Assembly: GCA_004431415.1 (NCBI GenBank)
Contig: QPMI01000245.1
Coordinates: 1-64,000, forward strand
From: Cyanophora paradoxa CCMP329
Taxonomy: Eukaryota; Plantae; Glaucophyta
Reading direction: 5' to 3'
Length of the DNA: 64,000 nt
A program made the translations under genes and the position numbers. Within the stretch, counting starts at the first letter, position 1, and every line of letters starts with the position of its first letter. Below the pieces are notes generated by a model. It worked only from the letters and a program-made list of their open reading frames with translations, was not told the DNA's origin and did not search any database. Of the stretch, positions 33,358 to 56,969 are shown piece by piece.

Positions 33358-33420
33358 CTGCGTACCCCGTCAGCTGCAGCGTCAGCGTCTGCGGGCAGAT
33401 GAGGCCGCGGGCGGGGCGCG

Positions 33421-38416: not shown

Positions 38417-38672
38417 TGTCGGATGAGAGGATTCCCACCCGGTGCAGCGTCCGTGCGGTCACGCACGGGCTGTGGCTGTAGCTGGGAGCACAAGTGGTCT
38501 ATTCACCAGTGTACCCGTCCAGGGATCGCGTACCCCCAAACGGAGTCGCGCCCGGCGCTAAGTCAGAATACAGAGAGTGCTAGAGCTAGCTGCTCGATAG
38601 CACTAGACTAGGGCTAGCGGCTACGCATAGACTACCGGCTAGCCTAATCCGAGGGAATCGCGGCACGCGACA
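38417..38672 (-). repeat. 3' LTR (256 bp)
   Basis: Identical by eye to 56714-56969; TG...CA ends. Confidence 0.97.
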
Positions 38673-38684
38673 ACTCCTCACTCT
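38673..38684 (-). promoter_or_regulatory. Polypurine tract (AGAGTGAGGAGT)
   Basis: Purine-rich run abutting the 3' LTR on the coding strand. Confidence 0.75.
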
Positions 38685-39381
38685 GCATACGGTGCGTCCT
38701 CGCACCGGACCGCGCCAGCCGAACGTCGAGTCTGCATGCTCGACGGGGCGTCCACCCCACCGCCGGGGTGTGCACCAACCGCGGCAGCGACAGGGCGGCG
38801 GCGAGTGAACTCCTCTCGAAGTAGAATGTCCGTCATCAGCAACCAGATATGCCAGGTAGCATAGCTCGCGACCGAAATAGGAGCCGATACCAGCATAGTG
38901 CATGTACCTAGGCAACCCCAGGCCAAGCTCGAAAGATGGAAAAGCATAAAAACTCGGAAACCCCCCCAAAAGCTGGCCCAAACTCGCTCCAACGGCGAGA
39001 GCCGAAGGAGAGTGGCACGGATGGGAAGTTTCACCGCCTCGGGAAGAAACCAACGAGGAGGTATCCGGGCCGCCCATCAGGCCCAACGAAAGAGCGGGGC
39101 ACGGCTTGAGCGGACCGCCCGACAACACCTGCTTCTCGGGGCCAGATGTGCCAGCAAAGCTCACGCCCAACCACTCTTTTTCAAGCTCGTGGGCCCAGGC
39201 TCCAGAAAAGTGAACGAAAGGCTCTGAACGGCGCCCGCTACTGATCGTCTCACCCGACAAGACGGTGGCCCGACCAATAACGACCCGCTCCTCGGCCAAG
39301 ACTGAGGCAAAGCGAGCAAAGAAATCTGCCCCACGGCGCAAGCACAGCGATCGCAAAGGGAACGGCAATGGGACAAGCATC

Positions 39382-42300
39382 TCACAGGTCGTCGACCAAA
39401 ATGGCGTCATCCATCTCAACCTCGTCGCCCTCGGCAGCCCGCTCGGGGCCCTCGGCGTCGACGTCAGGGGCGAGAGGTGAGTTTTGTTCTTGAGCGAGCG
39501 AGTCCGCGGGTGCGGGGTCGATCGCCGGCTCGTCAACGTTCGCGGCAGTCTTCCGAGGCCGACCAACGCGAGGGCGGGCTTGAGACTCGGAGAGACGCGT
39601 GCGGAACGGAAGCATGCAGTCGATGTGGGCGACGGTCTCGCGCAAAGGACGGGTACGGGCGTCGTCCTTGGCGGAGTAGGGCTTAGCCGATCCCTTGACC
39701 GTGTAGGTGTAACCGCCAGGGTTAACGCCGGTCACGGTGTAAGGCCCGACCCATGAATTGTACAGCCCTTTGTTGTGTTCGCCCATCCAGCACAATACCT
39801 TGTCGCCAACCTCAAAGCGGCGACGATGAGGCGGGTTGCCGGTGCGAGCAACCATGCGGTTCCGATAGAACCGACGGTACTCGCGCGAGGCAGCGTCGGC
39901 GCTCGCGGCAGCGCGCGTCATCGCGAGAAGGTAATCGGCTGGGTGCGTGTGGTCGGGGTTCACGAAGCGGACGCCGGCTCCGAAGCGCACTTCGCAGGGC
40001 AGGTGCACTTCAGAACCGCGGTGCAGGACCATTGGGGAGAACCCGGTGGCGGAGTGCACGGTGGTCCGTAACGCGAGAACGATATCGGCGTTGTAGAGAG
40101 GCCAGTCAGAGAGCGGCCGCTTGTGCTCACGGCACATGGCGTAAGCGAGAGTCTTGTAGACTCCGCCCAGGCGTTCAGCGCCGCCGTTCGAGGCGTGGTG
40201 GTAGGCGGCCGCGTGCACGAACCGGGTGCCTTTCTCCTTGAAGAACGCGTTCCACGCGCCTCCAACGAGTTGGGACCCGCGGTCCGTAAGGACGCGCGCG
40301 GGCACGCCCTCGTGCATATAGAAGTCGATCGCGGTGGCGAGCAAGGCCTCGCCGGAGATACGGGAGAGCGGGTAGATATAGCAGAACTTGGTGTACGCGT
40401 CGACGTACGCGATGATGTATCGCGAACCGTCTTCGTGCATATCCAAGTGGAAGATATCCACCTGCCACAGGTCTCCCTTGCCCGAAGGCTGTATCACCTG
40501 AATGGCGGTACGGCGGGGCTTCGCGGCCTTCGCGAACTGACAGTGCGGGCACGACCGCACAAAGCGAGCGATGGAGGCGTACATGCCAGGCCACCAGAAC
40601 CGCAGGGCGATCCGACGGGCTATCACGGGCGCGCCTCGATGGGCCCAGCCCTCGTGATAGGCGTAGAGCACCCTGTCGATCCAAGCGTCCGGCAAGACGG
40701 GTAGAAACCGGCCGGCAGGGACCAAGGGGTTGCGCTCGATGACGCCGTCGTCGGCCAGGCTGAACTCGCCGGCCAGGCGTGCAAAGCGCTCCTTGGCCCG
40801 CAGGCAGTGAGCGCAGCTGGGCGAGCAGAGGTCTGCGTCGCGCCTTGAGCCGCGGGTGCAGACAGTTGGGTTCTCGCCCTCTGTGTGGAAGGCGAGAAGC
40901 TTCTTGCAGAAGGAATCCTCCTTCTGAGCGGCGAGCAGACGCTCGCGCCTCTCGGTCGGGAACATACGGCGCAGCGCGTCGGGGAGCGCCCCGTCGACGG
41001 CTGGCGAGGGTCCGCAGGCCCACGCGTCGAGGACGGTATCCACGAAGACCGGCTTGCACGGCGGGCGAACGTCCCGGCCTCTAGGGTCGAGTTCTACCCA
41101 CCGCTGCGGGGCAGCGGTCTCGGCGGCGACCGTCTCGGGCTCGAGCGGGGCGGCGTCGTCGGGAGCCTGCCCGCGGGCAGAGGGGCGACCTCGAGCCCGC
41201 GGCGCTGGCTTGGGGTCCGGAGGGACCGGTCGGACGCGGATCTGGTGACGAGCAGTCTCGGGGGAGAGCGAGCGCCGGCGCGGAGGCCCGGGAGGCGGCT
41301 CGCCCTCGGGGTCCTCCGGCTCCCACTCAATATGGACCGGCACCGGCCGATCTGAGGGGTCGACCGGGGAACGCCAGTGGCGCGTGTTGTACTCGTCTCG
41401 AGGCTGCCGCCTCAAGGCGGGGCCGCGAGGGAAGAGCGCGTCGGGATGCAGGGGCCGCGGCTCAGCAAATCCCTTGGCGCCCCACCGACGGGGCCCGGTT
41501 TCTGAGCGCTTCGGTACCCGCTCCGCAAGAGCGAGGGGGAAGCCGTCGGCGTCGCAGGCGTCGGAGGGGCCAGGCCCTTCCGGCAACGACTCGTCGTCGA
41601 TCTCGCCCGAGGCCTCGGCCTCTGCGTGAGCGTCCTCTAGCAGCGCGGCCGGGGCGCCCAGGTCGCCCTCAGGGGCGTCGGGCATCTCCGCGTCCGAGGG
41701 GGCCTCGCGCTCTTCGACAGCGGGCGCCGGGTCCGGCTCCCGTCGTTTCGGGGGCGGCGAGACCGATTCTGGCGCGGGAGGCGCAAAGCGCTCTGGGGCG
41801 GCCCGCGCTCGCTTGCGCGTGGCGGCGTCGGTAGCCGAGGCGGAGGCCTTGGCCTCAGCGAACCCAGCCGACGCAGCAAGCTTGGCGAGCTCGCGGGGCA
41901 GGCGTCGCGGCGCGCGCTCTGGCGGCGGGGGCTCGGCGTCGGAATCTGTTTCCGCAGCACCGCCAGCCTCGCCCTCAGGCTCGGGCGCGGGCGCTTCAGG
42001 GGCGCCGGCGTCGGGCCCGGCCTCGAGAGCACTGGCTGGTACAGGGGGCCGCGACTCCTCCTCTGCATAAGAGGAGCGGCCCGTCGGGGAGGAGGGGGCG
42101 CTCGCAGGCGCCGTCCGGGGCGCTCGGCGCCTGGCGGCTCGGCCACCCTCGGCTGGGGCTTCCGCGCGGAAGCCGGCGGAGTTGGCGAGCTGGCGCAGGG
42201 CCCGCTCGGTCGGGCCCAGCTGCATCCTAAAGATGCCCAGCGGAACGTCGGGATCCTCAGGCTCAGCCCCTACAGCGTACTGCGGGATGCCGAAGCCCTC

Positions 42301-44871
42301 GGCGCCCTTGTAGGCCGCGGGCTTGGACGAGGAACCGTCGGCACCGCCTGGCTGCCAGACGGGGTGGTCCTTAGGGAGACGCGAGCATGCGTCAGGACCC
42401 CCGTTCTGCTTGCCGGGGCGGTAGACGATCTCAAAGTCGTAGGCCTGCAAGAGCAGGGACCAGCGACCGAGGCGACCCGTCGTCGGGTCCAGCGTCTTCA
42501 GCCACTGGAGGGCGTGGTGGTCGGTCCGCACCAGGAACTGGGGGCCGCCCAGCAGATAGTGGCGCCAATACTTAATGGCCCAGACTACTGCGAGGCACTC
42601 CAGCTCCGTAGCGGAGTAGTTCATCTCGGCCGGCAGCAGCGTGCAGCTGATGAACGCGAGCGGCCGCTCGACGCCTTTGTCGTCGGCCTGGCTCAGAATC
42701 GCGCCGATAGCGTAGGTGCTAGCGTCCGTCTGGAGAATGAAGGGCTTCGAGAAGTCCGGGAACCGCAATATAATATCGCGGCCCAAGAGTTCTTTCAGCT
42801 CCTTAAAGGCACGGTCGGCGGGGCCGTCCTCTGGCCAACTCCAGGCGGCGTCCTTCAATAGAAGGCGCTGCATGGCGTGCACCACTTTGGAAAAGTTCTC
42901 AACAAAGCGGCGGTAGTAGCCGGCGAGGCCGAGGAACGAGCGGAGCTCGTCCGCGTTCTTCGGCGTCTGCCAGTCCGTGATCACCTTGGTCTTCGCAGGG
43001 TCCTGGCGGATCCCTTCGGCGGAGATGCGGTGGCCGAGAAGGTCGATTTCAGGCACGCAGAAGCGGCATTTCGACGGCTTCAGGCGCAGGTTCGCCTTAG
43101 AGATCGTCTCGAAGAGCGCCTTCAAGTCTAGAAGGTGCTGATCGATGGACGGAGAGAAGACCGTGATATCGTCGATGTACGCGACGACACAGGTGGTCAG
43201 CAAGGGGCCTAAGATCGCAGTGATCGCGCGGGAGAAGGCCGCGGGCCCATTGGTGACCCCAAACGGCGTAACTTTCCACTGGAAGTGGCCCCAGGGGACC
43301 ACGAATGCAGTGTAAGCTCGTGAGCCGGGGTGCAGAGGCAACTGCCAGAAGCCGGCAGTCGCGTCGGCAGTCGAGAAGACCATCGAGCCGCGGAGGCGCT
43401 CGAGCTGGTCGTCGATGCGGGGCAAGGGAAACACGTCCCGCTCGGTGATCTGATTCAGCCTCCGATAGTCGACACAGAAACGCCAAGTGCCGTCCTTTTT
43501 GGGGGCCAACACTACCGGCGAGCCATATGCCGCTTGGGAGGGCTCGATCAGCCCGAGCTCAAGGAGTTTCTGAATTTCCTTGCGGGCGTGTTCCTCGGCG
43601 TGCGGGTTCATACGCCGCGGAGGCGTGAACACCGGAAGGCGAGTCGTGAGTTTGATCACGTGCTCGTAATAGAGCAGGTTGCTGGTGCCCTCTTTGGCCT
43701 CGACCTTGTCTGCGAAGACATCCTTGTAGCGCCGCAGGAGCGCGTGAAGTTCGGCTTTCTGCGCCGTCGTGATTGACGGGTGAGAGCCGAGCTCAGGAAT
43801 CTTCTTCAGCAGCTCTTGCCACTCCTCCTCTGCATTAGGCACCGGCCGCGGTGCCTCAGCGGGCTTCGCGTCGGGTGCTGCAGTCATAGGGGGTGGGGCA
43901 TCGGGCCGGGCCGAAAGCGAGGCTGTGACCACACTCTGGGGTGGGGCCTCGGCGTCGGCGACCGGTGCGGCCTTGCGGACCGTAACGTCGCCGCGCATGG
44001 CGCGGACTGCATCGAGCAAGTCGCGCTCCGCTTTTTCGGAGAGACCGGGGAAGGTCGAGCGCAGGGTGGCGTCGCTGGGGACGGCCACTGCCTCGACTGC
44101 GGCGACGAACTCGTCGACCGAAGGGCCTGTGATCGGGGCCGGCGTTGGGGACTCGCTTCGTGACGACGTGCTCATAGCATCGTCGTCGAAGCTGATGATG
44201 CTCATAGCATCAAGGTCCTGCAACGGCCGGTCGGCTGTGTCGAAGGGCAGCTCGCCAAACGTGACGACTATATCGTCGACGTCGTAGGGCGGTGCGCGGG
44301 GTGGGTCGGCGGGCTCCGCAGGCGCTGCGCTAGATAGTGCGCGCTGCTTTTCCGCCTCATCTACGACAGAACGTAGGGTGGAGATTATTTTCTCAACGTC
44401 TTTGGCGGGCTCATATGCCGCGCCAAGCATGCGTGCTTTTCTATTAAAGTGGCGGAGTCCAGTGCGGCGTTTGGCAGGCACGATTCGCAGCCGGCGAATC
44501 AAGAGGTCTGTCAATGCACTCGCACTACAAGGCATTTGCTCAGGTTCGTACTCAAAATCACCAGGCGGTAGGGCGACCGCCGAAGCGACCGCTACTACCG
44601 ATCCTAGCGGCAGGGTTACCGGCTGCCGGCCAGGATTGCACAACCGCACGTGAAACATTTTGTCTCCCGGGTGATTATGCAGCTGGTAAGGGCAGAGTAC
44701 GCCCAAGGCTTGCGGGGACTCCGGCGACGGCTCGACGTAGAGGTGCGGCAACTCACGCGTTGCCGGGCCCTGCCCATTGAGCGTGCATGGGACGAGGGCC
44801 TCTCCGACGGGGAGCTTTACTGGTCCCAGGACTCGGACCAGGATCCCAAGCTGGTCCGGAGCCGAAAAGGG
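39382..44871 (-). CDS. pol: Pol: reverse transcriptase, RNase H, long low-complexity insert, integrase (entered by -1 frameshift)
   Basis: KKDGTWRFCVDYRRLN, PFGVTNGPAAF, AYIDDI, LQTDAS...ELE...RTDH...DACSR, H-x4-H...CPHC zinc finger, WQVDIF / LTDRGSQ / SNGGAER (DDE), WVGPYTV. The frame is open back to the slippery site at 44865-44871. Confidence 0.95.
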   Translation of the reverse strand, partial: PFSAPDQLGILVRVLGPVKLPVGEALVPCTLNGQGPATRELPHLYVEPSPESPQALGVLCPYQLHNHPGDKMFHVRLCNPGRQPVTLPLGSVVAVASAVALPPGDFEYEPEQMPCSASALTDLLIRRLRIVPAKRRTGLRHFNRKARMLGAAYEPAKDVEKIISTLRSVVDEAEKQRALSSAAPAEPADPPRAPPYDVDDIVVTFGELPFDTADRPLQDLDAMSIISFDDDAMSTSSRSESPTPAPITGPSVDEFVAAVEAVAVPSDATLRSTFPGLSEKAERDLLDAVRAMRGDVTVRKAAPVADAEAPPQSVVTASLSARPDAPPPMTAAPDAKPAEAPRPVPNAEEEWQELLKKIPELGSHPSITTAQKAELHALLRRYKDVFADKVEAKEGTSNLLYYEHVIKLTTRLPVFTPPRRMNPHAEEHARKEIQKLLELGLIEPSQAAYGSPVVLAPKKDGTWRFCVDYRRLNQITERDVFPLPRIDDQLERLRGSMVFSTADATAGFWQLPLHPGSRAYTAFVVPWGHFQWKVTPFGVTNGPAAFSRAITAILGPLLTTCVVAYIDDITVFSPSIDQHLLDLKALFETISKANLRLKPSKCRFCVPEIDLLGHRISAEGIRQDPAKTKVITDWQTPKNADELRSFLGLAGYYRRFVENFSKVVHAMQRLLLKDAAWSWPEDGPADRAFKELKELLGRDIILRFPDFSKPFILQTDASTYAIGAILSQADDKGVERPLAFISCTLLPAEMNYSATELECLAVVWAIKYWRHYLLGGPQFLVRTDHHALQWLKTLDPTTGRLGRWSLLLQAYDFEIVYRPGKQNGGPDACSRLPKDHPVWQPGGADGSSSKPAAYKGAEGFGIPQYAVGAEPEDPDVPLGIFRMQLGPTERALRQLANSAGFRAEAPAEGGRAARRRAPRTAPASAPSSPTGRSSYAEEESRPPVPASALEAGPDAGAPEAPAPEPEGEAGGAAETDSDAEPPPPERAPRRLPRELAKLAASAGFAEAKASASATDAATRKRARAAPERFAPPAPESVSPPPKRREPDPAPAVEEREAPSDAEMPDAPEGDLGAPAALLEDAHAEAEASGEIDDESLPEGPGPSDACDADGFPLALAERVPKRSETGPRRWGAKGFAEPRPLHPDALFPRGPALRRQPRDEYNTRHWRSPVDPSDRPVPVHIEWEPEDPEGEPPPGPPRRRSLSPETARHQIRVRPVPPDPKPAPRARGRPSARGQAPDDAAPLEPETVAAETAAPQRWVELDPRGRDVRPPCKPVFVDTVLDAWACGPSPAVDGALPDALRRMFPTERRERLLAAQKEDSFCKKLLAFHTEGENPTVCTRGSRRDADLCSPSCAHCLRAKERFARLAGEFSLADDGVIERNPLVPAGRFLPVLPDAWIDRVLYAYHEGWAHRGAPVIARRIALRFWWPGMYASIARFVRSCPHCQFAKAAKPRRTAIQVIQPSGKGDLWQVDIFHLDMHEDGSRYIIAYVDAYTKFCYIYPLSRISGEALLATAIDFYMHEGVPARVLTDRGSQLVGGAWNAFFKEKGTRFVHAAAYHHASNGGAERLGGVYKTLAYAMCREHKRPLSDWPLYNADIVLALRTTVHSATGFSPMVLHRGSEVHLPCEVRFGAGVRFVNPDHTHPADYLLAMTRAAASADAASREYRRFYRNRMVARTGNPPHRRRFEVGDKVLCWMGEHNKGLYNSWVGPYTVTGVNPGGYTYTVKGSAKPYSAKDDARTRPLRETVAHIDCMLPFRTRLSESQARPRVGRPRKTAANVDEPAIDPAPADSLAQEQNSPLAPDVDAEGPERAAEGDEVEMDDAILVDDL

Positions 44872-47096
44872 ACGACGACTTCGCGGTGCAGGTGGTCACG
44901 GGCCCGGAGGCACCACCCGGACAGCGTCGTGTCGATCTGGCCATGGACGGCCTGGATCGCGTCCAGGCCGAGCAGAATATCCGGCTCAACGCCCATGGCG
45001 CCGCGCGGGACGACGAAGACGCGGCGGCAGAAGCGGAGCGAGCCCAGGACGAAGACTACGTCGGCTCGGCGACAACGAATTTTGTCCCGGTCCATGAAAC
45101 CGCGGACTATCGTGTGGCCCTCGACGTAATTGACTTCGTCGGGCGGCAGGCGGTCGAGGACTTCCTGGGGAACTACAGTTCCCTGGGCGCCCGTGTCGAC
45201 AACAATGCGAGCGGGCCGTTCGGCGCCGGAGCGGCCGTTCGGCAGGCGCATAGCAATGCTGCCGTGGATGTGCAGTGTCTTTGGCCGGAAGAATTCCAGG
45301 GCCCGGTCGCGCGGGAAGCTAGGTCGGGCGCGGCGGACGTGGAATTCTGGTTCCGGCGGCGCGGGTGGACCCGACAGGTCCGGCGCGCTCGCGGGTGGGG
45401 ATGGGGGCCGGGACTGGCGAGCCGCGGCTCGCTCGGCGACTCGGCGCTGCTCAGCCTGGTCGGCCAACGGCGAGGGCTTGGTCCGCTTGCGCGGGCCCGG
45501 GCCGTGGCGGTTGGCGTAGAGCAACTCGTCGCTGGGCGGGTCATAGCCGGCGCGCGTTCCCAGCGGCGTCTCCTCTGCCGGGCGGGGCACGGCGAGGGAC
45601 GGGCGGTTTTTGGAGCCCAGGGCGTGGCCCGCGGGCATGAGAGCTTCCTCGTCGGAGGTCAGGCCCTCGGGGTAAATGATCGCGGCGGCCTCGAGTGCGT
45701 TCTGCGGGGCGAACGCCGCTGTCGGCGCTGAACCCGAGAACCACGCGCGAGTTGGCCGTGGCGGGGCCTTATAGCCCGTTTTGCGCATCGAGATGCCGTA
45801 GCGGTCCATGATCGCCTGATGCACCGCGCGTAAGGCGGGCTCCAGGGTTTTTGGATCGACTTGCAGCATTTGCGCGGGGTTCGACAGCCAGTTGAAGACC
45901 AGCACGGTCGAGCGCGGCCCGAGTTTGTGCAGCAGGCGGCGGGCCCAGGCCGGCGCGGGCTCGCGGCTCTTTGGTGGGGCCGGAGCGGGCGGCGCGGCTG
46001 GCGCCGACGGCGCGACCGTCTGAGCAGGCGGCTCGTGGGCAACCGTCTGGACGCGGCGGATCGAGATGTACTTCTCGTCCGCCGGCACCGGCACGGCGGC
46101 ACGGACCGACGCCGGCGTATGCAAGCGGGCGGGGAGGTCGCGGGGCTCGCGGGCTTCTTGCCCACGGTGCGCCGGCGCCTCTGCGACAGTGTATACCGCG
46201 AAGAAGGGCTTCGGGTGGGCCTTTGCTTCAGCCTGCATCGCCACGCGAGCCTCGTGCTGGCGCTCGCGCTCAAGCAGGGCGCGCCAGTCTTTGGTGCGAT
46301 CGAGCGTGGCCTGCAGGGCTTCGAGGTCGGCACGGGGCCCGTCTGGAAGGAGCGAGATCATCATGCCCGTCTCTCCCGGGGAGAGGCTGATCTGCATATC
46401 GATGCCGGCCCGGAGGGCGCGGCAGACGTCTTCCAGGGCTCGCCGAGCAGCCTGCTTTGCCTGGGCGAAGGCTTCGTCTGAGACCTTCGGGGCGCCACCG
46501 GGCTTGGCGCGCGTCTCGGCGTGGCTAGCGGCGGTACGGATTTGGCGCTCGACTGTTTGAAGCCAAAGCCCCAATTCCGTGACCCCTTGGCTCCGGACCC
46601 TTACGTCGCGGCAGCTCGAGCACTCGCGCACAAACTGCAGGAGGCCCACTGCTGGGACGTCGGCCTGGGGGTTGAAAGTCGTGGCGGCGGAGGCGCGCGG
46701 CGCGGCCACTGAGGCGCGCGGCTGCTCCGGCGTCGACTGGTCTGCGCGCGGCGGCTCGGCCTGGCTCGCACGCGATGACCGCTCCTGGGCCTGAGAGATG
46801 GAGGCGCGACCCTCCGCAGGCTTGGACGGCGCCGCCGACTGCGGACCGGCCTCGCTCTGCCCCTCAGGCCCCTCTAGAAAGGGCCGCGGGCGCTCGTCGC
46901 GTCCGCCCGTCGGCGGCTGCCCGCCCGATGGCGGCGCGGCGGTGCGGGCCGAGGACGACGCGGACTGAGCGTCCATCTGGTTCTGGAGCTTGATCAGGAC
47001 CAGCGCGGTGGCCTGCTCAGCTCGCGCGGGCGCCGAGAGCGAGTCTGGCATCTCAGCGTACTGCGCCTTCCAGACCATGTCGAAGAGCTCGCGCAA
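44817..47096 (-). CDS. Retrotransposon ORF4: unknown N-terminal region plus C-terminal aspartic protease
   Basis: RIVVDTGAQGTVV and DILLGLDAIQA retropepsin motifs near 45000-45200; the frame is open further upstream to about 47265. Confidence 0.85.
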   Translation of the reverse strand: MRELFDMVWKAQYAEMPDSLSAPARAEQATALVLIKLQNQMDAQSASSSARTAAPPSGGQPPTGGRDERPRPFLEGPEGQSEAGPQSAAPSKPAEGRASISQAQERSSRASQAEPPRADQSTPEQPRASVAAPRASAATTFNPQADVPAVGLLQFVRECSSCRDVRVRSQGVTELGLWLQTVERQIRTAASHAETRAKPGGAPKVSDEAFAQAKQAARRALEDVCRALRAGIDMQISLSPGETGMMISLLPDGPRADLEALQATLDRTKDWRALLERERQHEARVAMQAEAKAHPKPFFAVYTVAEAPAHRGQEAREPRDLPARLHTPASVRAAVPVPADEKYISIRRVQTVAHEPPAQTVAPSAPAAPPAPAPPKSREPAPAWARRLLHKLGPRSTVLVFNWLSNPAQMLQVDPKTLEPALRAVHQAIMDRYGISMRKTGYKAPPRPTRAWFSGSAPTAAFAPQNALEAAAIIYPEGLTSDEEALMPAGHALGSKNRPSLAVPRPAEETPLGTRAGYDPPSDELLYANRHGPGPRKRTKPSPLADQAEQRRVAERAAARQSRPPSPPASAPDLSGPPAPPEPEFHVRRARPSFPRDRALEFFRPKTLHIHGSIAMRLPNGRSGAERPARIVVDTGAQGTVVPQEVLDRLPPDEVNYVEGHTIVRGFMDRDKIRCRRADVVFVLGSLRFCRRVFVVPRGAMGVEPDILLGLDAIQAVHGQIDTTLSGWCLRARDHLHREVVVPFRLRTSLGSWSESWDQ
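44834..44871 (-). promoter_or_regulatory. -1 programmed ribosomal frameshift signal (C CCU UUU, 6-nt spacer, 8-bp hairpin)
   Basis: Minus strand gtC CCT TTT cggctc CGGACCAG cttgggatc CTGGTCCG; a -1 slip joins the protease ORF to Pol. Confidence 0.85.
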
Positions 47097-47152
47097 TGTG
47101 GGCGAGCAGCCTCGCAGGCGGGCGTCGTTCTCGTGCCGCTTGTACGCAGCGT

Positions 47153-48217: not shown

Positions 48218-51200
48218 CCGAGAGCCCGCCGACGATGGTGGAGGGCGGCTGGAACCGCACGCCCGCCCACGTCGCGCGAACCGCCCCCTCGTAGATCGGC
48301 TGGTACGGCGTGCGAACCAGGAGGCTTTCGGCTTCCTTATCGGCGACGGCCGTCGCGGTCAGACTGCGCCGGGCTGAGGGCGCGGCGCCCTTGTTCTGGA
48401 CCGCGTCCCACATCATCGCCGGGCGCAGCGCCTCAACGTCCCAGTCGGGAAGTTCAGGATCGTCCGTCTCCCAGTCGATCGGACGCGCGAGGCGGATCGC
48501 GACGTTCAGATCAGCGTAGAGCGAACGGAGCATAGTCTCGAACTGAGGCCGCAGGGGAATAGCCTCATCGGTAAAGATGAGCCCCAGCGGAAAGTTCCCG
48601 GGACAGTTTTCTAGCTCCTCGGCGGCGCGGGCGGCCTCAAGGTGGCGCTGTATCCCACTCTTGCCCCCGGCGCCAAGGTCATCGCCAGAGGGCCACGCGT
48701 CCTCGGCGCCGGCCATCGGGGGCGAGCCGAGCTCAAGGCGCTGGTACCCAAGGCCGTGCGGCATGTTCGCGAGGTACGCGCGGATGCCGTCCGCCAGCGC
48801 GCGGGCCTCGGACTCGGCGCACTCATCCCTCGTCATAGTGCGCAGGAGGGCCCTGAAGACCTCGGCCACGTTCTGGGGCATGGCGGCGTTCAGGGGCGCG
48901 CAGTTGTCCGCGCGCTGCGCGAGCAGCGGGATGCGGGGATACTGGAAGCCCTGGAGCATTGCGAGCAGGATCCGCCCACAGATCGCTGCGCGACCCTCGT
49001 GGTCCGGCACGACCGCATTGTTCGGGCCGAACTTCCACGCGAGCGTGGGGTGGCCGTCCGGATACGTCGGCCTCGCATCCGCGTCGAAGACCTTCTTGCC
49101 CTGAGGCAAGACGTCCGACCCGCGGTCCGGCTTGGCCGTCGGCTTAGTCAGGAAGGCCTCGTGAATGAACACCATCAGACCGTCCGGCACCACACAGCGG
49201 AACGAGTTCAACACCTTGTTGAAGTCATCCATGTGTTCGGCGACCGCCTGAGCGATCTCAGGGACGTAGTCAGCCGGGCGTTCCGACTCGACGTCCATGG
49301 CCGCAGCCGACAGAAAGTCGTCAGCCCAGTGCTGGCTGCGGAGGTGCTTGCCCGGCGCGTGGCGCTGGAAGAAGCGCGCGTGCCAGGCCAGCGTGAAACC
49401 GATGGCCGTCGCAAGGACTTCCTCTTCCGCCGGGATCGGCGCCCAAGGGCACGTCTCCGGAGGTGAGTTCGGGAAAGGCGGCAGCTCGTAACCGAACGCG
49501 GTGACGAGCCGCGGGTTCGCGTGACTCTTCTTGGGCTGGCTAGCCAGCTGGGCGACTGTCACCGCGAGCCACAGCTTCTTGTTTTCGCGCTGGCGCGGCG
49601 CGCCCTCTGCGACATCCTTGTCGCAGGCGGCGTTCGGCGCAGGCGTGGCCGTGCCGGTCACGAGACGAGGCGCGTAGATACGCCGCGTCTTCAGGCGACC
49701 CTCAACGTTCTCGACGCGCTTGTCAGCGAGCGGGCGCAGCAGGGCCAGCACGGCGACGTCGCGCGCGAAGCGGGTCGAGAATGGCGTCCTGGCGTCCTCC
49801 TCGTTCGGGTCGGCAATGTTACCGCCCAAGACTGAGGTGTGCAGGGTGGGGCGCTCGGGGTGCGGCATGTACGGCGGCGGGGCGTTCCGCGCGCCGCCAC
49901 CTTCGTGGAAGAAGGCGGTATACAGCACCCGCGAGACCTGGCCTAGGGTCGAACACACGGGCACGTGGGCAGTGCCCTCGTGCGTGAGATCCCAGGCGCC
50001 CGCATACGTCGGGACGGCAGACTGTGCGGTACGGGTCCCGACCGCGAGGTACTGCACGATGTCCAAGCTGACGCCGCAGGCAGCGTGCGGGAACGCAAGC
50101 CCCTGCAGGTCGAAGAGTTCCGGGTCCTCGTCGAACGGCCGCTGAGGCGGGCCTACGAGCGAGAACCAGTTCACTATGCCGCGCGCGGCGGGGCCGACGC
50201 GCTTAAGCATAGTCGAGCACAGCTCGCCCATGTGCTGGTCCTGCAGCGCGAGCACGTCGATGTTGTACTCGTCAACGTTGCCGGCGTGCTGCCAGCGCAG
50301 GGGGTAGCTGATCGCGGGCAGCGTCGCCCACTCAGTGAACCCTGGCTCATAGCATTCCAGGGGCCGGAAAAACGCGTGTTTCCGGTCCATATACTCGCGC
50401 AAGAGCTTGTAATCGTTGGCGTACGTCGGGTCCGCCAACGAGAACAACGGCCGCGGCTGCCAGTCCTTGTGCGGCTCGAACGGCACGTGGGCCGCCGCGG
50501 GGATGGCAGCCGGCGCTTCTTCCTCCTCGCCCTCTTCCTCTTCACTCTCGACATGATCAATGTCGAGAGGATCGAGGCGGGGCTCGGGCTCTGTGTCAGC
50601 GCCGTGGCTGCTCACGAGCGCGTCGTCGAACGTGAAAGACTGCTTCGCGGCGTGACGCTCGAGGGCGTGCAAAACCCTCTCCTGGAAGGCCGCGCGCTGG
50701 GCGGTCAGGGCCAAGCCCCGGTGCGGGTCGCTCTCGGCGGCTTCCTCCTGCGCACGCGTCCCTAGCCGCAGGTGGCGGCGTAGCCAGCGGACCCCGTGCG
50801 GGAACTCTAGGCCAGCGCGGTCTGCGGATGGGACAGTTGCCCCGGCCGCCTCGGCACGGAACATGGTATGAGCACGCAGGAGATGCTGCGCCCACGCCGG
50901 CGGAATGACGGCCGAGTTCGGGTTGAAGCGGCCCCCGTGAGTCCACCGCGGGAGGCGCGTGGTGGGGATCGCCCAACGCATAGTCAGGAAATGCTCCAAC
51001 TGCTGCTCCGTCCACTCATGCAAGTGGAACGGAAGGTCGTTGGAGTGGGGCGTGACCGGGGCACGGAGGCCCAGCGCGATCATGAAGAGCTCAAACGCGG
51101 CCGCGTTCAGCCGCGCGAGGCGGATAGTGCGCTCGGCCCTAAGTGCAACGCGTCCCGCCGGCGGCACCTCGTGCGGCACCGGCGGGCCGTCGAGGCGGCT

Positions 51201-51644
51201 CTGAATGGGCGTGCCCTTCTCGCCCGTGAGGAACGCCTTGAGGTGCGGGACCCGCAGATCAGCAAGGGTGCCCTTCAGCGCCTCATAGGGGATGTTCCAG
51301 CGGCGGGCAAGTTCCGCCCGGGCCGTCATCGGCCAGTCGGCAACTTGCCTCCCCTCGCAGAGCTGCGGAGGGCAATGCGGCACCGCGAGGAGGCCGTCTT
51401 CCTCCTCACCCTGCCCCCGGCGGGCGCTGCGGGTTCGAGGCCCCTGCGAGCCACGCCCGCGGGTGCTGACGCGCACGACCCCGTCCCCGCGGCCACGCTC
51501 GCCGCGACGGGCGGTCTGCCGGGGGCCGGTGCCGTCGCGCGCGCGAGATCGAGCGGCGGCTCGCTCAGGCGGGCTCCACAGGCGCGGGTGCAGGGGCAGG
51601 CGGCGTCGGCGCGGCGGCGGGGCGCGGCGCCAGTGGGCTCGCAA
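48015..51644 (-). CDS. Retrotransposon ORF2, about 1,100-1,200 aa, unknown function
   Basis: Long uninterrupted ORF with globular-protein composition and an acidic patch (ESEEEEGEEEE); no recognisable motif. Confidence 0.8.
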   Translation of the reverse strand: MRAHWRRAPPPRRRRLPLHPRLWSPPERAAARSRARDGTGPRQTARRGERGRGDGVVRVSTRGRGSQGPRTRSARRGQGEEEDGLLAVPHCPPQLCEGRQVADWPMTARAELARRWNIPYEALKGTLADLRVPHLKAFLTGEKGTPIQSRLDGPPVPHEVPPAGRVALRAERTIRLARLNAAAFELFMIALGLRAPVTPHSNDLPFHLHEWTEQQLEHFLTMRWAIPTTRLPRWTHGGRFNPNSAVIPPAWAQHLLRAHTMFRAEAAGATVPSADRAGLEFPHGVRWLRRHLRLGTRAQEEAAESDPHRGLALTAQRAAFQERVLHALERHAAKQSFTFDDALVSSHGADTEPEPRLDPLDIDHVESEEEEGEEEEAPAAIPAAAHVPFEPHKDWQPRPLFSLADPTYANDYKLLREYMDRKHAFFRPLECYEPGFTEWATLPAISYPLRWQHAGNVDEYNIDVLALQDQHMGELCSTMLKRVGPAARGIVNWFSLVGPPQRPFDEDPELFDLQGLAFPHAACGVSLDIVQYLAVGTRTAQSAVPTYAGAWDLTHEGTAHVPVCSTLGQVSRVLYTAFFHEGGGARNAPPPYMPHPERPTLHTSVLGGNIADPNEEDARTPFSTRFARDVAVLALLRPLADKRVENVEGRLKTRRIYAPRLVTGTATPAPNAACDKDVAEGAPRQRENKKLWLAVTVAQLASQPKKSHANPRLVTAFGYELPPFPNSPPETCPWAPIPAEEEVLATAIGFTLAWHARFFQRHAPGKHLRSQHWADDFLSAAAMDVESERPADYVPEIAQAVAEHMDDFNKVLNSFRCVVPDGLMVFIHEAFLTKPTAKPDRGSDVLPQGKKVFDADARPTYPDGHPTLAWKFGPNNAVVPDHEGRAAICGRILLAMLQGFQYPRIPLLAQRADNCAPLNAAMPQNVAEVFRALLRTMTRDECAESEARALADGIRAYLANMPHGLGYQRLELGSPPMAGAEDAWPSGDDLGAGGKSGIQRHLEAARAAEELENCPGNFPLGLIFTDEAIPLRPQFETMLRSLYADLNVAIRLARPIDWETDDPELPDWDVEALRPAMMWDAVQNKGAAPSARRSLTATAVADKEAESLLVRTPYQPIYEGAVRATWAGVRFQPPSTIVGGLSDDPAEAAPSATTSAPAPAQAAAQTAAPPAAPQQAQPGATQARPSAAAAAVRVTRGRPAPRSRRPRPP

Positions 51645-54600
51645 GCGGCGGCCATGTCACCGCGGCATGCAAGGTCACGAGCTTCGCCGTCGGTGCAGGC
51701 GGCGGGACAGGAGCGGGCGCTGGCCGGGCGGACCGCATCGGCGCTGGCGTGTCCCTTGGCGAGGGCACTTTCACGGGCGGGCGCGGCGGCGGGCAGGCCT
51801 TAGCCTCCCTGATCGTCGCGCTGACGGCCTTCGCCGTGTAGGCGCCCGTCGTGTCCGACGCCGGCTTCGGCGTGGTGGGCAGGTCGTGGAGCGGAGTGGG
51901 GGTGCGGCTGCCCGCGTCCGTGCGCCACTTCTCCACGAGCGCAATCATGTCCTTGACCGCCTCGTCATTGAAACCGGCCTGCTTCTTCAGCAGCCGCCGG
52001 AATAAAATGACGAGGTGGGCCCGGTCGCCTGCCTGGGCCCCCTCGATGTACCGGAGCAGCTCCGCGGCCCCGGCGGAGCCGGGGACCGTGCGGGCCCAGG
52101 CTGCATCGCACAGGGCGGTGAGTGGCGGGCTCGGGCCGAGCTGGCTCAGCACGTAGAGCTCCTCTGGCACGATCGTGGGCAGCTGCCCGCCTCGCGTCGT
52201 GCCGTGCAGGGGCAGCTGCGTGGAGCGCGTGATCGGGCGCACGCGGCCGACCCTCCACGTGCTAGGCTCCGTCCCCTGCAGGTGCGGCCCATGCAGCCAG
52301 GCATTGCACAAGGGCAGGTCCCGGAGGTGCAGCACGCGGGCGGCGGCGACGCGGGGGTCCACCGGAACGCGCTCCACCGCGCAGGGCTCGCCCTCGTGCA
52401 CGAACGGAAAGGCGGGGGCACGGCCGTCGCGGTACGCAGTCAGGCGCTCCGCGAGCGCTGCCCTCAGCCACCCCTCGGTGTCCCGATCCGAGCGGAGCCG
52501 CGCCCGCCCCGGGATCGGAATCTCGACGGAGAGAGCGAGGACGGCGAGCGAGTGTACAGCCGCCGTGAACTCCGAGTCCGAGGGGACGAGAAGGTCCCCG
52601 TCGGCCGGGGCGACGGCGCTCTTGTGGGCGTCGTGGGGACCGGCGCGGCCGCCAATGCAAGCCACGGCCCTCCACTGGATCGCGTGCTCGAGGGCTAGCA
52701 GGGCGAAGCCGTAGGCGTCGACCCGCGAGTCCACCATGAGCGGCTCGGCGAACTTAAAGAAGCGGCCGAGGATCTTCTCGACGGCGCCGGCGGTGCCCGG
52801 GGCACCGTAGTCGACGCGGTGCAGGTAATAGCCCGCAACGGTCGCGGCGCACGCGAGGCGGAGGCGGTCCTGAGCCGGCAGCAGCTCGCTCAGCTCGACC
52901 AGCTGGCGGCGGCCCGACACCGTCATCTCGTGCGGCTCGAGAGAGGCCGCCGCGGGTGAGTGCTGGCCTATGCTCCAGTGGCGGCGGTACGGATCCAGCC
53001 AGCCGGCGGTGGCCACGCACTCGTCCCCAAGCTTCGCGAGCTTGTGAACGTCGGGCTCGACGGCAGGGCGGCCCTCGGACGTGAGGCCCTCGGCGTGCGG
53101 CCACGCGTGGCCCCCGGACCACTTCGCGGCGACGCGAGAGGCCTGGTGCGTGAGGCTCATGATCTCATAATAGTGCGTCGGCCAGGCGTGGGCCAGCGTG
53201 TCCTGGGACAGCGGGTCATGCCCCAGCATCTGCAGGAACGCAGTGGGGAGGGCCCGCGAGTCGAGGTACGTGCTCTCGGTGGCGAGCGGCTGAGAGAACG
53301 CCGCAAGCAAGAAGGAGAGCGTCTGGCGGGTGCGGGCCGGGCAGCGGAACGCAGTGGCATACCACTGCTCGTCCCGGACCTCGATCAGCCCCTCGCTCAC
53401 AGTGCAGCCGCAGTGAGTCTCGCACGGCGCTGGGTACAGGAACGCCGCGCGGTCGAGCGGGACCGACGCGGCGCCCTTCAGCTTGTGCGCGTCCACGTTC
53501 CAGAGAGGAACGGGCCCCAGCTCGTGCTCGCGGCCCTTCTCCGGGCCGAGCTCGACAGCTCCAAAGTGAGTGAGGTCGAGGCCGGAGCTAGCGGCGAGGA
53601 GGCGAGCGCGGTTGAGGCGCAGGGTCTCCTTGGCCGCTACGGCCATGTCCTCGTCAGCTAGCGAGGCACCATCGTCGGTCACCTCGAGGCTCGCCACGGT
53701 CTCGGCCCCCGAAGAGTACTCCAGGCAGCAGCCCACGCCGGCGGCAGGGTCCGCCGGAGCCTCAGCGGCGGTGGCCTCGGGGACCGACTCGGCGGGAGCG
53801 AGCTCCGTCGCAGGCTCGGGACCCTTCGCTTCTGCGTCAGCGCCCTCGACCTCCGTTGGGTCCGGGGCGGCCGCCAAGAGGAGTGCGACCTCCTCAAGGG
53901 CGGCGTCCACGATGCCGGCGGCGAGCTCGGCGGGGCTAGAAGTCGGCGCGGGCGTCGGCGCGGGACCCTTCGCTTCTGCGTCAGCGCCCTCGACCTCCGT
54001 TGGGTCCGGGGCGGCCGCCAAGAGGAGTGCGATTTCCTCAAGGGCGGCGTCCACTGCGTCGAACGCGACCTTCTTCTCCCCCTCGTCCAGACCCGACTCC
54101 GGGCGGGTCGGCAATAGATCCTGCGCCGCGCGCGGGGCCGGCTCCTCGAGCTCGGGGCCCGGGGGGCACAGGTCGGGGCGGTTCTCCGCCGTCAGCTGCG
54201 CCACCGCGACCGTGAAGGCGGTGGCTGCGGCGGCGACCGTGTCGAGCGCGGGTCCCTCCTGGGGGTTCTTCAGCGCGGCGGCGTTTGCCACGGCGGCCGC
54301 GATGAAGACCCGCAGGGTGTCCTCCAGGGTCGCCTCGTCGCTGCGCACGATGCGCACACGGTACACGTGCTTCGCACTCCGGAGCTCGGCCGGGGAGGGC
54401 GCAGCGACGGGGCCAGACCCCGTGTGGGCTAGCGGTGCCCCCAGGAGGGCGCCCGACGCTGCAGGTGCAGCGCGGACGACCTGCTCAAGGAGGGCGCGCG
54501 CGATCTGAATCGTCGCGGGGTCGTTGGCGCCGGCCTGCCCCCCCGTCTGCTCGGCGAGGGCGCGGCGAACGGAGGCCTGGATCTGCTCTTCAACCGCGGG

Positions 54601-56172
54601 GCAGGCCGACGCGCGGTGGCCAGGCTTCCCGCAGTTGTAGCAGTTGCCGTTGATGGGGCCGGTGCCCGGGGGACCGGGGCTCGTGCGCCCGTTCGCGCCC
54701 GGGGCGGGGTAGAACCGGCGCTTGGGATCGCCGGCTCCCGCGCCCATCGGCCCGCGGCGCTTAGTCGGGCTGATCGCCGACCACTCGGGCAAGGGCCGCG
54801 GGTTGGTCCGGCACTCAAACGAGTAGTGCGATTCGCCGCAGTGGCACGGCCGCCGGGGCTTCTCGGGGAGGCCCCGGGCCTTCAGAAAATCTTTGATCTT
54901 TTGCTGATAGACCGGGTCATCGAGGCGAGGCGGCGGTGCGGACGCCGACGGGTAGAGCGCGCGGACTACGGCGAGGGGCTCGTCCTGAGCAATGAGCTGC
55001 AGGAACAAGACGACCTCGGCGTTCTGATCCTCGCCGTCGTCTGCGTCCCACCCGTGGGCCTCGAGCTCTGCGAGCTCGGCCTCCGTCACCGTCGTCGCGA
55101 ACATGATGCGCGTGCCCGCGCCGGCGCCCGCGTTCGAGCGCGAGGGGACAACGGGAACGGCCGGCGTGTGCGTGGTCGGCGGCGCGCTCTGCGGCGTGCG
55201 CGAGGCAGCCGTGGGCGCCTGCAGCGGTGTTCCGCGCGCTCCCAGCACCAAGGCCGAGCCAGGGACTTTAGAGATATCGACGTCCCAGGCGCCCAGTTCA
55301 TTGGTGCGCTTGGTTACAAGGTCGATGACCGCAGAGGGTCCCGTGATCTCGCGGTCCGCGATCTTCTGCGACAGCTCGTCGTAGATCTTCCGAGCCGTGG
55401 CGAAGTTCGTGATCATGTGCCGGCGATCGGTGTCCGAAATCTCGGAGTCTTCGAAGTCGCGGCACTGATTGCGAGTGCGGCGCTTGAGCATTTGGCCCGC
55501 GTGGCGCATGAGTGCCATGAGCGGCGTCTCGTGCGCTTCGCGGCACTCCGGGATGATGCTCAAGTCGAGGATTCGGCGGTAGAACGCCTCCGGCGCCTCG
55601 CCCACGTGCGGCAGGTCGAGGAGCGCCTTGTACCGGTCAGGGTTCCGCATCTCGGCGTCATCTTCGAGACGGCGCCTGATCGCGGTGTACGTGACCGTGA
55701 GGGCGGTCCGCTGCAAGCCCTCCTCGGCTTGCGCGATCTTCTCGTCGAGCGTCTCAAGGATCGCGACGTCCCACGAGTCCTCCGTGCTCGTGCGCGCGCG
55801 CTCAGCCCGGTACGCCCTCAGCTTCTCGAGCTCGCGCGTGTCGATCTGCTCGGCGCTCTGGAACAACGAGATGTTCTGGCGCACGGGGTGCCCGTGATCT
55901 AGCGTGCTGAGAAGAGCCCACCCAGTTCGCTTCTGCACTTCGATGTGTGCAGTCGGCGAGACACTAAGCAAGTCCTTGCTCATGCTCGCGCAGCTCTCGA
56001 ACTGGCGGAGGTGGTCCTGAACCGTGCGCTGATCGCTGCCCGGCGGCAGCTTCGGCAGGCTCTGGATCCATTGCAAAACATTTGATCCGCTCATAGAGTC
56101 CATGTCGGCGGCGCCACGCGCGTGCGCGGCCCGGACGACGAACTCCGCGGAGGCTCCGGTCCCCGAGGACAT
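51565..56172 (-). CDS. gag: Retrotransposon ORF1: Gag with zinc knuckles plus about 1,000-aa unknown extension
   Basis: First ORF after the 5' LTR; helical capsid-like N-terminus (DHLRQFESCA..., GEAPEAFYRRI), CHCGESHYSFEC and canonical CYNCGKPGHRASAC. Confidence 0.85.
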   Translation of the reverse strand: MSSGTGASAEFVVRAAHARGAADMDSMSGSNVLQWIQSLPKLPPGSDQRTVQDHLRQFESCASMSKDLLSVSPTAHIEVQKRTGWALLSTLDHGHPVRQNISLFQSAEQIDTRELEKLRAYRAERARTSTEDSWDVAILETLDEKIAQAEEGLQRTALTVTYTAIRRRLEDDAEMRNPDRYKALLDLPHVGEAPEAFYRRILDLSIIPECREAHETPLMALMRHAGQMLKRRTRNQCRDFEDSEISDTDRRHMITNFATARKIYDELSQKIADREITGPSAVIDLVTKRTNELGAWDVDISKVPGSALVLGARGTPLQAPTAASRTPQSAPPTTHTPAVPVVPSRSNAGAGAGTRIMFATTVTEAELAELEAHGWDADDGEDQNAEVVLFLQLIAQDEPLAVVRALYPSASAPPPRLDDPVYQQKIKDFLKARGLPEKPRRPCHCGESHYSFECRTNPRPLPEWSAISPTKRRGPMGAGAGDPKRRFYPAPGANGRTSPGPPGTGPINGNCYNCGKPGHRASACPAVEEQIQASVRRALAEQTGGQAGANDPATIQIARALLEQVVRAAPAASGALLGAPLAHTGSGPVAAPSPAELRSAKHVYRVRIVRSDEATLEDTLRVFIAAAVANAAALKNPQEGPALDTVAAAATAFTVAVAQLTAENRPDLCPPGPELEEPAPRAAQDLLPTRPESGLDEGEKKVAFDAVDAALEEIALLLAAAPDPTEVEGADAEAKGPAPTPAPTSSPAELAAGIVDAALEEVALLLAAAPDPTEVEGADAEAKGPEPATELAPAESVPEATAAEAPADPAAGVGCCLEYSSGAETVASLEVTDDGASLADEDMAVAAKETLRLNRARLLAASSGLDLTHFGAVELGPEKGREHELGPVPLWNVDAHKLKGAASVPLDRAAFLYPAPCETHCGCTVSEGLIEVRDEQWYATAFRCPARTRQTLSFLLAAFSQPLATESTYLDSRALPTAFLQMLGHDPLSQDTLAHAWPTHYYEIMSLTHQASRVAAKWSGGHAWPHAEGLTSEGRPAVEPDVHKLAKLGDECVATAGWLDPYRRHWSIGQHSPAAASLEPHEMTVSGRRQLVELSELLPAQDRLRLACAATVAGYYLHRVDYGAPGTAGAVEKILGRFFKFAEPLMVDSRVDAYGFALLALEHAIQWRAVACIGGRAGPHDAHKSAVAPADGDLLVPSDSEFTAAVHSLAVLALSVEIPIPGRARLRSDRDTEGWLRAALAERLTAYRDGRAPAFPFVHEGEPCAVERVPVDPRVAAARVLHLRDLPLCNAWLHGPHLQGTEPSTWRVGRVRPITRSTQLPLHGTTRGGQLPTIVPEELYVLSQLGPSPPLTALCDAAWARTVPGSAGAAELLRYIEGAQAGDRAHLVILFRRLLKKQAGFNDEAVKDMIALVEKWRTDAGSRTPTPLHDLPTTPKPASDTTGAYTAKAVSATIREAKACPPPRPPVKVPSPRDTPAPMRSARPAPAPVPPPAPTAKLVTLHAAVTWPPLASPLAPRPAAAPTPPAPAPAPVEPA
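53818..54054. repeat. In-frame about 93-bp direct duplication (period 144 bp) in ORF1
   Basis: VDAALEE(I/V)ALLLAAAPDPTEVEGADAEAKGP occurs twice with near-identical DNA. Confidence 0.9.
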
Positions 56173-56400
56173 TCTCAGGTCAAGCGGCGACGTAAAGTCA
56201 CGCTAGTCCGTGAGAGAATGTGCCTCGCTCGAGGTCCGAGGCCGTCGTGGTCCACAGCAGCGGCGAGCAAGCTCGGCTGCAGCGATTCTGGAGACAGCTC
56301 GGGCGCGCACGCCTCAGCCGTCGATCCGATCGCTCTTCGTCTTGTCCAGCACGATCGCAGCAGCCGGAGAAGGCTGGCGTCGCGGCGAGTGACTGGCGAC

Positions 56401-56483
56401 CGACCGGGAATAGCACCCTCGGGCTCGCACGGCAGCTCGCGCAGGCGGCGTCGACGAATCCGACCGGGAATAGCACCCTCGGG
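56401..56483. repeat. 23-bp direct repeat in retrotransposon 5' leader
   Basis: cgaccgggaatagcaccctcggg at 56401 and 56461. Confidence 0.9.
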
Positions 56484-56702
56484 TATTCGCGCGCGGGCCT
56501 GGCTTCCACGGGACTAAGTTCTGGTTCTTTCCAGAATGTTCGGTCGCCAACTGCGGATCAGCCCGGAGCGGCGCAGGCGGGGCGCGAGAAGCGACCCACG
56601 ACCTCTACCGAGGTCTACCTGCGCGCCGGCTGAGCCGCGGTCGCCGAGCTGGGTCGGTTGCTGATGACGGGTCGCTGATGATCGGGGTTCTAGCTCCGTG
56701 AG

Positions 56703-56713
56703 CCGATGGCGCC
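56703..56713 (-). promoter_or_regulatory. Candidate primer-binding site (GGCGCCATCGG), lacking the usual leading T
   Basis: Directly abuts the 5' LTR and resembles a TGGCGCC-type PBS. Confidence 0.45.
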
Positions 56714-56969
56714 TGTCGGATGAGAGGATTCCCACCCGGTGCAGCGTCCGTGCGGTCACGCACGGGCTGTGGCTGTAGCTGGGAGCACAAGTGGTCTATT
56801 CACCAGTGTACCCGTCCAGGGATCGCGTACCCCCAAACGGAGTCGCGCCCGGCGCTAAGTCAGAATACAGAGAGTGCTAGAGCTAGCTGCTCGATAGCAC
56901 TAGACTAGGGCTAGCGGCTACGCATAGACTACCGGCTAGCCTAATCCGAGGGAATCGCGGCACGCGACA
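56714..56969 (-). repeat. 5' LTR (256 bp)
   Basis: Identical to 38417-38672 and followed by GAGTT. Confidence 0.97.

Follow-up and report, generated by a model that had tools for sequence, protein, structure and literature searches.

The window analyzed here, a stretch of 64,000 nucleotides from the glaucophyte Cyanophora paradoxa CCMP329 (contig QPMI01000245.1), contains on its minus strand a Ty3/Gypsy retroelement of 18,553 bp (38417-56969). The element belongs to a multi-copy Ty3/Gypsy lineage of Cyanophora and was inserted recently. Overall, it is probably best explained as a recent multi-copy Gypsy in which Gag, a long cargo and the protease (PR) are made as one polyprotein and Pol is reached by a -1 frameshift. 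The cargo (about 9.4 kb) is family-wide and under purifying selection, and the five long frames of the window are most likely two, a Gag-cargo-protease open reading frame (ORF1, around 3,800 codons) and a frameshifted Pol. The coordinates of all the features are collected in Table 1.

The long terminal repeats (LTRs) were identical at 256 of 256 positions and ended in TG...CA on the minus strand, and the 5-bp target duplication GAGTT was present on each flank of the element. The length of 18.55 kb, the identical LTRs and the perfect duplication described in an earlier interpretation of this DNA (the sequence-only reading) were thus confirmed. Its statement that the element was just inserted stood only in part: the insertion is recent, but LTR identity bounds its age loosely, at about 0.6 Myr with an assumed rate of 1e-8 per site and year or 5.9 Myr with an assumed 1e-9. 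A true recent insertion was favored over polishing to a family consensus because both LTRs share the base at 38507/56804 where the listed short-read contigs differ. The leader and the trailer measured 541 and 709 nt, respectively. No TGG for a tRNA primer was found 3' of the 5' LTR at 56690-56713, and the longest complement inside the LTR to the post-LTR sequence, which could have indicated self-priming, was only 7 nt. Loose contig ends were seen at 56707, where related families carried variants of a short neighboring hairpin-like motif.

Five long minus-strand frames were found in the window: O1 (56202-51565), O2 (51656-48015), O3 (48358-47153), O4 (47267-44817) and O5 (44895-39382). The interval from the first ATG to the last stop occupied 93% of the internal region. 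Pfam matches were obtained for zf-CCHC in O1, for the aspartyl protease at the end of O4 and for reverse transcriptase (RT), RNase H (RH), IN-H2C2 and rve (integrase, IN) in O5, in the order PR-RT-RH-IN, whilst O2 and O3 gave none. The catalytic motifs VVDTGA, YIDD, TDAS, HHCC and D..D..E, as well as GPY, were intact, in agreement with what had been read for RT, RH and IN. The distance between the CCHC knuckle and the protease was 9,383 nt, close to the 9 kb of cargo first estimated, and the size of the element is indeed owed to coding cargo in this interval, which is conserved and selected. The putative Gag capsid region had no Pfam match at E<=10; the best of 12 profile comparisons, obtained with Ty3 capsids, was weak (1.4%, E 0.036), with the major homology region (MHR) aligned. 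This region was about 40% identical in the subfamily called B below, and one model of that subfamily, P0139, also contained both the Cys/His motif and the CCHC knuckle. The protease was 30-38% identical to those of distant siblings.

The RT-RH region matched the Ty3 RT among the PDB profiles with an E of 3e-85, followed by caulimovirus-type (1e-49) and retroviral ones (1e-28 or weaker), and its best solved relatives were the Ty3 enzymes 4ol8 and 7q5b. No Chromo domain was matched in O5 or in the siblings, and plant chromovirus-type rows formed a separate tree branch. A beta-rich-looking segment opened Pol in all the families, and no Pfam match was obtained for it at E<=10 when a dUTPase-like domain was sought. 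Pol also contained two long low-complexity linkers; these were unusually long, with about 450 aa before RT (43504-44864) and about 580 aa between RNase H and integrase (40693-42438). A lineage-specific motif followed RNase H in every family seen. A 381-aa frame at 38586-39731 was ruled out as a gene by its flat codon-position GC and by single-base indels in the contigs, and antisense frames of 406-499 aa, without Pfam matches, were taken as shadows of GC-rich coding sequence.

The RT search matched 5,033 proteins, and among the best 120 of these, 22 EukProt entries were 49-100% identical to the element and all the others 45% or less. The named relatives within the first range and their looked-up cluster mates were C. 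paradoxa models, and the outside matches, 33-44% identical, came from animal and plant genomes. In a quick maximum-likelihood RT-RH tree of 66 rows, 19 host rows comprising at least six families formed one branch with a support of 100; 8 of the 120 matches had been dropped as short, pseudoscorpion rows were thinned, and curated references were not part of the set. Long branches meet in this tree, and the placement of a sister group is not given by it. A long region before the protease was found in at least six RT families. Furthermore, 20 public DNA runs from a single organism contained about 40% of the cargo-region words, and contigs from three DNA runs covered all 30 bins of the whole element, including the cargo, above the depth of the flanks, a depth that is no copy number. 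The dominant short-read variant differed from the window by about 1-2% in stretches of the pol/protease region and by 4-5% or more in the cargo. Cargo and pol models shared contigs, lying 2-4 gene numbers apart, for instance on tig00000788, tig00020734, tig00020848, tig00021572, tig00020849 and tig00000658. The matches in two putative RNA runs were all short or of low complexity, and a few pieces fell in the LTR and the trailer.

A separate observation concerned subfamily B (P0003, P0004, P0008, P0133, and P0139), whose RT was 92-97% identical to that of the element but whose Gag and cargo were only 37-50% identical; this contrast could mean that pol was recently swapped between families, or that rates differ extremely. 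In metagenomes, 46 loci with integrase motifs were found, but their full-length RT was at most 45% identical and none matched the cargo, and they were taken as unrelated Gypsy elements. The suggestion of an undescribed lineage was supported, in that the lineage is apparently undescribed: no description of these elements was found in literature searches, which did not extend to Repbase, Dfam, GyDB or supplements, where the family may be listed. The architecture itself is known from the planarian element Burro/GYPSM1 (PMC6431247). The main text of the REXdb paper, devoted to Viridiplantae, does not include Cyanophora or glaucophytes (PMC6317226).

The first three frame breaks (O1/O2, O2/O3, and O3/O4) are very probably errors of the long-read assembly. 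One Gag-cargo-PR frame was favored because the short-read contigs were longer than the window at these three junctions and the sibling models read through them. Across 46240-49523, the short-read contig piece had 3,302 letters against 3,284 window positions, a net gain of 18 that keeps the frame. The gaps in the visible rows (22 further rows being unlisted) were nine of a single base, one of 2 and one of 6, located at 47169-48110, and 10 of these 11 fell inside the GC-richest kilobase. All nine single extra bases matched a neighboring base (chance about 0.006), and when the frame was shifted at every gap site, a stop-free path from O3 to O4 was obtained. Judging by the lengths of the pieces, the contigs also had a net 2 additional bases around 51460-51720 and another close to the end of O2. 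Among the stored sibling models, 10 of the 11 covering the end of O1 continued beyond it, the exception being the model of the window itself, and all those covering the ends of O2 (three) and O3 (two) read through. Model P0162 presented O1-O2-O3-O4 as a single chain, and P0173 ran from the end of O2 through the integrase. This read-through, being that of predicted models, supports a joined ORF1, short of proof.

The sequence-only reading had instead proposed five separate ORFs, which would have to be linked by several recoding events. Five long same-strand frames are what the window contains when read directly, but as biology this version is very unlikely: three of the four junctions coincided with short-read gaps and were read through in siblings, and, in a scan of O1, O2, O4, and O5, no in-frame slippery heptamer was found in O1 or O2. 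It is also rather improbable, although clearly less so, that the family has a single long ORF1 and that the present copy is truly frameshifted and mobilized in trans by intact sisters. RT slippage favors the shortening of homopolymers, which would fit such a copy, and a real private feature exists in it, a stretch missing at 51257-51395. There, the dominant short-read variant differed and was apparently longer (about 40 extra codons in sibling models), and the difference was considered real because minor contigs at 50755-51368 agreed with the window without any gap. Nevertheless, the visible single-base differences all had one direction and were concentrated where GC is highest, within one kilobase. 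No internal stop interrupted the long frames O1, O2, O4, and Pol, the differences from the dominant variant were mostly synonymous, and the published assembly of the species was built from PacBio RSII reads and corrected with Quiver and Illumina data (PMC6704402).

The frame change between protease and RT is real, because a short-read contig covered 44729-45041 with 0 gaps. Pol is likely made by -1 frameshifting, predicted to give a fusion of about 5,600 aa, because the frame change survived in the short reads and the only in-frame slippery heptamer was located there. This heptamer, C CCU UUU, was the sole in-frame X XXY YYZ within the approximately 5,400 codons of O1, O2, O4, and O5; it lay in the correct register inside a 79-nt overlap and was followed, 6 nt downstream, by the start of an 8-bp stem. 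ORF1 would have about 3,770 codons up to the slip site and ORF2 1,827 beyond it. The motif [VI]PF closed the protease in 9 of the 11 sibling models containing PR, across three other families. Splicing or internal initiation could produce Pol instead, since the host is intron-rich and the stimulatory structure is not significant. This is unlikely given the position and register of the only heptamer, and given that the PF dipeptide encoded by it persists even where protease identity between families has fallen to about 30%.

The conservation of the cargo was then apparent at several distances. Homologues numbered 6 in the O2 search and 16 with the O1 profile, the latter including the window's own, and all came from the same source. 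In subfamily B (P0133 and P0139), O1-like and O2-like sequences occurred in a single chain with 37-50% identity, cargo domain 1 being about 50% identical. Cargo domain 2 had a conserved core, T..V..RGI..G..QG, at O2 residues 482-528, and in a five-sequence alignment of this core, 24 columns were invariant; G, R and P made up most of them, a single E was included, and D, H and C were absent. In family C (RT 70-74% identical), model P0146, of 4,924 aa, had the knuckle at residue 560, PR at 3006 and RT at 3732; its cargo-2 region was homologous to that of the element (z 3.3 and 6.2; 0 of 100 block shuffles), and its Gag had no detectable homology. The distant P0187, outside the set used to build the profile, carried the cargo-2 core, an RS-like stretch at the equivalent place and PR in one chain. 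In families with RT near 50%, PR appeared at residue 1,150-1,900 in the longer models, some of which are probably incomplete, and the long region preceding it had no detectable similarity to the cargo of the element. Most of the length differences between the window and the short reads were contained in the RGG/RS stretch. In the best-supported subset of rows, 30 of the 39 substitutions listed in O4 were synonymous, as were 11 of 17 in O1, 2 of 2 in O2 and 15 of 19 in O5, when 26-32% was expected; most of those in O4 fell in 45219-47152, with about 32% expected. Selection was also indicated at 49494-50416, where a contig differed at 43 bases but sibling models at 11 residues.

A nested insertion, or host DNA captured by this copy alone, was excluded because the cargo is family-wide and under purifying selection, and its probability is practically negligible. 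The cargo is certainly unlike retroelement proteins, but it was found at the same position in many copies belonging to at least three diverged families, it is intron-free and no homologue among host genes was found in protein searches. The sibling families with cargo in the same place also overturned the possibility, raised with the sequence-only reading, that the cargo was nested and unique to this copy. Two further features were observed: an acidic segment of about 30 residues was tandemly duplicated within O1 (around 53750-54100, minus strand) and retained in sibling copies, and a weak LEM-like helix, below the threshold (E 0.07-0.15), was seen between cargo 2 and the protease in P0146, P0147, and P0151 of family C.

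The searches did not connect the cargo to any known protein. A full HMMER search of 1.84 billion proteins with the cargo-2 profile produced 13 matches, all with E<=1e-10 and all matching families A, B or C, P0187 among them; cargo 1, covered by a word-limited search and not by the full one, had no match beyond the lineage. No match was found in Pfam or, with 6 proteins, in PHROG. The PDB profiles returned only zinc knuckles for A1, one chance-level match for A5 and none for A6. In the ESM Atlas there was nothing for cargo 1, and only a lead to DUF6604 at 0.78, below the usable level, for cargo 2. Four scans of viral contigs gave 0 relatives, and Foldseek with the cargo 1 model gave nothing at E<=0.001. 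The BIR, MATH, BCL2-like, SUMO-like and ankyrin domains were absent from the Pfam scans of the element and its siblings. Regarding env, there was no Pfam match and no strong membrane segment in O2-O4, and none of the frames O1-O4 had more than one N-glycosylation sequon. The virus-like accessory proteins initially proposed were therefore not borne out, as the searches revealed neither an env nor a membrane anchor nor any homologue in viruses.

In-frame cargo between Gag and protease is already a known design. Burro/GYPSM1 is described as encoding a polyprotein of 4,873-5,140 aa in which cargo and env, in the same frame, separate the Gag CCHC knuckles from PR; the cargo domains given for it are BIR, MATH, BCL2-like, SUMO-like and ankyrin, and Gag and the enzymes form one ORF1 polyprotein (PMC6431247). 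The Cyanophora element shares with it a size derived from in-frame coding cargo between knuckle and protease and a very large polyprotein, the in-frame position being deduced here across assembly gaps and via sibling models. It differs in that neither env nor any of those cargo domains was found, in that RT-RH-IN lies in the -1 frame after PR instead of in a single frame, in its LTRs of only 256 bp and in its glaucophyte host. Burro was compared by description, no Burro sequence being present among the RT matches listed (best 120 of 5,033), and the two cargos are likely unrelated. With Ty3 and the Metaviridae, the element has in common the TG...CA LTRs, the 5-bp duplication, the PR-RT-RH-IN order, the GPY module and the CCHC knuckle; however, its coding length is about three times theirs, its protease closes ORF1 instead of belonging to Pol, no canonical TGG primer site was found and its Pol linkers are long and of low complexity. 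Much of the size of Ogre is attributed to LTRs of 1.9-6.5 kb and separate extra ORFs (PMC6431247, PMC6317226). The total length of the Cyanophora element falls within the 16-25 kb range given for Ogre/Tat, but its LTRs are short, its extra coding sequence is inside ORF1 and it has one RNase H. The element is neither a chromovirus nor an Ogre/Tat. In alpharetroviruses such as Rous sarcoma virus, the protease is at the end of gag, and RT and IN are produced via a -1 frameshift. The Cyanophora element resembles them in a protease that ends the first ORF and a Pol made by a frameshift, here predicted, and differs from them in lacking env, in carrying some 3,100 cargo residues and in an RT that falls outside the retroviral clade.

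Under the preferred explanation, a Gag-cargo-protease polyprotein of about 3,800 residues would be translated, and the -1 frameshift at C CCU UUU would yield a rarer fusion of about 5,600 residues, extended by RT, RNase H and integrase. As ORF1 encodes both cargo and protease, cargo production would be one-to-one with Gag, and the protease of the element would then cut the cargo into separate proteins; cargo and protease would thus reach Gag levels and Pol a fraction of them. The two globular orphan domains might scaffold an enlarged intracellular particle, the RGG/RS stretch might bind and compact the RNA of about 18 kb, and replication would be ordinary Gypsy copy-and-paste. We infer, tentatively and as the likeliest of the options, that the cargo pieces are non-catalytic particle proteins, because the invariant residues of the core are mostly G, R, and P without D, H or C, there is no strong membrane segment and glycosylation sites are almost absent.

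The main rival of this particle scaffold, somewhat less probable, would keep the same two-ORF layout with the protease releasing counter-silencing or host-manipulating factors. The repeats of C. paradoxa are reported as preferentially methylated (PMC12344493) and its small RNAs as abundant (PMC3700990), the Burro cargo is described as regulatory (PMC6431247), and between subfamilies A and B the cargo diverges far faster than RT (44-50% vs 92-97% identity), as in an arms race. Nevertheless, divergence in the Gag region (about 40%) is just as fast as in the cargo, the Pfam scans detected no known regulatory domain, and an output one-to-one with Gag would exceed what a regulator needs. A much bolder proposal, to which only a small chance is given, is that of a glaucophyte-specific lineage of reverse-transcribing viruses, with a giant particle evolved independently of Burro, new structural folds in the cargo and a non-enveloped element of about 18 kb that leaves and enters algal cells; if true, its Gag-Pol of about 5,600 residues would exceed the Burro polyproteins in length.

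Several points weigh against a joined ORF1 with a selected particle cargo and a frameshifted Pol. Piece lengths are the source for one letter of the 18 in the gaps and for both of those at O1/O2, automated gene models can bridge frames by false introns and many visibly skip segments, and the contigs show a dominant variant 4-5% away with rare variants dropped, so this copy could be broken. The stem downstream of the heptamer did not surpass shuffled sequences in stability (z -1 to -1.9), and the N-terminal capsid assignment is weak. For cargo 1, the comparison with family C (z 1.9 and 0.1) did not show homology, and no cargo similarity to the family of the element was detectable in families D and E. 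The comparison at 49494-50416 sets bases counted in a contig beside residues counted in gene models, and two other intervals were less skewed (96 bases with 31-32 residues and 33 with 12-14). Finally, the AlphaFold models were of low confidence, with a mean predicted local distance difference test (pLDDT) score of 38.9 for cargo 1 and 28.6 for cargo 2, and a function for the cargo would thus lack structural support.

Table 1. Features of the Cyanophora element and their positions in the window, ordered along the minus strand.
Feature	Position	Strand	Remarks
Target-site duplication GAGTT, right copy	56970-56974	.	Sequence
5' LTR, 256 bp, TG...CA	56714-56969	-	100% identity with 3' LTR
Expected primer-binding position	56690-56713	-	Without canonical TGG start
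Likely Gag capsid region	55183-56172	-	Start ATG 56172; MHR-like stretch 55486-55614
Cys/His motif (54811-54846) and CCHC zinc knuckle (54601-54642)	54601-54846	-	PF00098, E 3e-5
Cargo domain 1, about 590 aa, orphan	51853-53622	-	Globular by composition
O1/O2 junction, likely assembly break	51460-51656	-	Contigs net 2 bases longer; sibling read-through
Cargo domain 2, about 1,060 aa, orphan	48213-51395	-	47% identical in subfamily B
RGG-/RS-rich low-complexity stretch (O3)	47153-48212	-	Continuous in P0162 and P0173
Further cargo before protease (N-terminal part of O4)	45219-47152	-	No database match
Aspartic protease, ORF1 end (VVDTGA ... VVPF)	44850-45218	-	PF13650, E 1.3e-4, below the curated cut-off
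Slippery heptamer C CCU UUU	44865-44871	-	Predicted -1 frameshift into Pol
Pol frame, about 1,830 codons	39382-44864	-	Pfam, PDB profile matches, motifs
RT	43024-43503	-	
RNase H	42439-42816	-	
IN zinc finger	40525-40692	-	
IN core	40198-40479	-	
GPY	39739-39747	-	
Polypurine-tract-like purine-rich tract adjoining 3' LTR	38673-38686	-	Sequence
3' LTR, 256 bp	38417-38672	-	
Target-site duplication GAGTT, left copy	38412-38416	.	Sequence

Outside the element, an intron-rich GH31 alpha-glucosidase gene was found on the minus strand at 57150-61050 (pieces of Pfam PF13802, PF01055, and PF21365), the element lying a few hundred bases beyond its 3' part. A putative RNA contig corresponded to 57253-57523 with zero differences. 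The left flank (28300-38400) was lower in GC (mostly 0.59-0.69), and the 34 frames scanned in it gave zero Pfam matches. A tRNA-Val called by ARAGORN at 5468-5557 (minus strand) was not confirmed by Rfam and is probably spurious.

These results describe a second, apparently independent Gypsy element enlarged by thousands of residues within Gag, and its noteworthy traits are the orphan selected cargo, the host lineage and the layout of protease followed by frameshift. The host branch is a deep one within the Archaeplastida, and the LTR elements of C. paradoxa are reported as a minor, unexpanded fraction (1.77%; PMC6704402); the elements seem to be present in the proteome of the species as dozens of unnamed gene models. 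Approximately 1,650 residues are selected, globular-looking protein without detectable relatives beyond the lineage, and about 3,100 residues of the likely Gag-to-protease polyprotein have no recognizable relatives. With the predicted -1 frameshift, the protease would be made in amounts like those of Gag. The alga can be cultivated, and the element bears on the limits to retroelement size, namely packaging and RT processivity.

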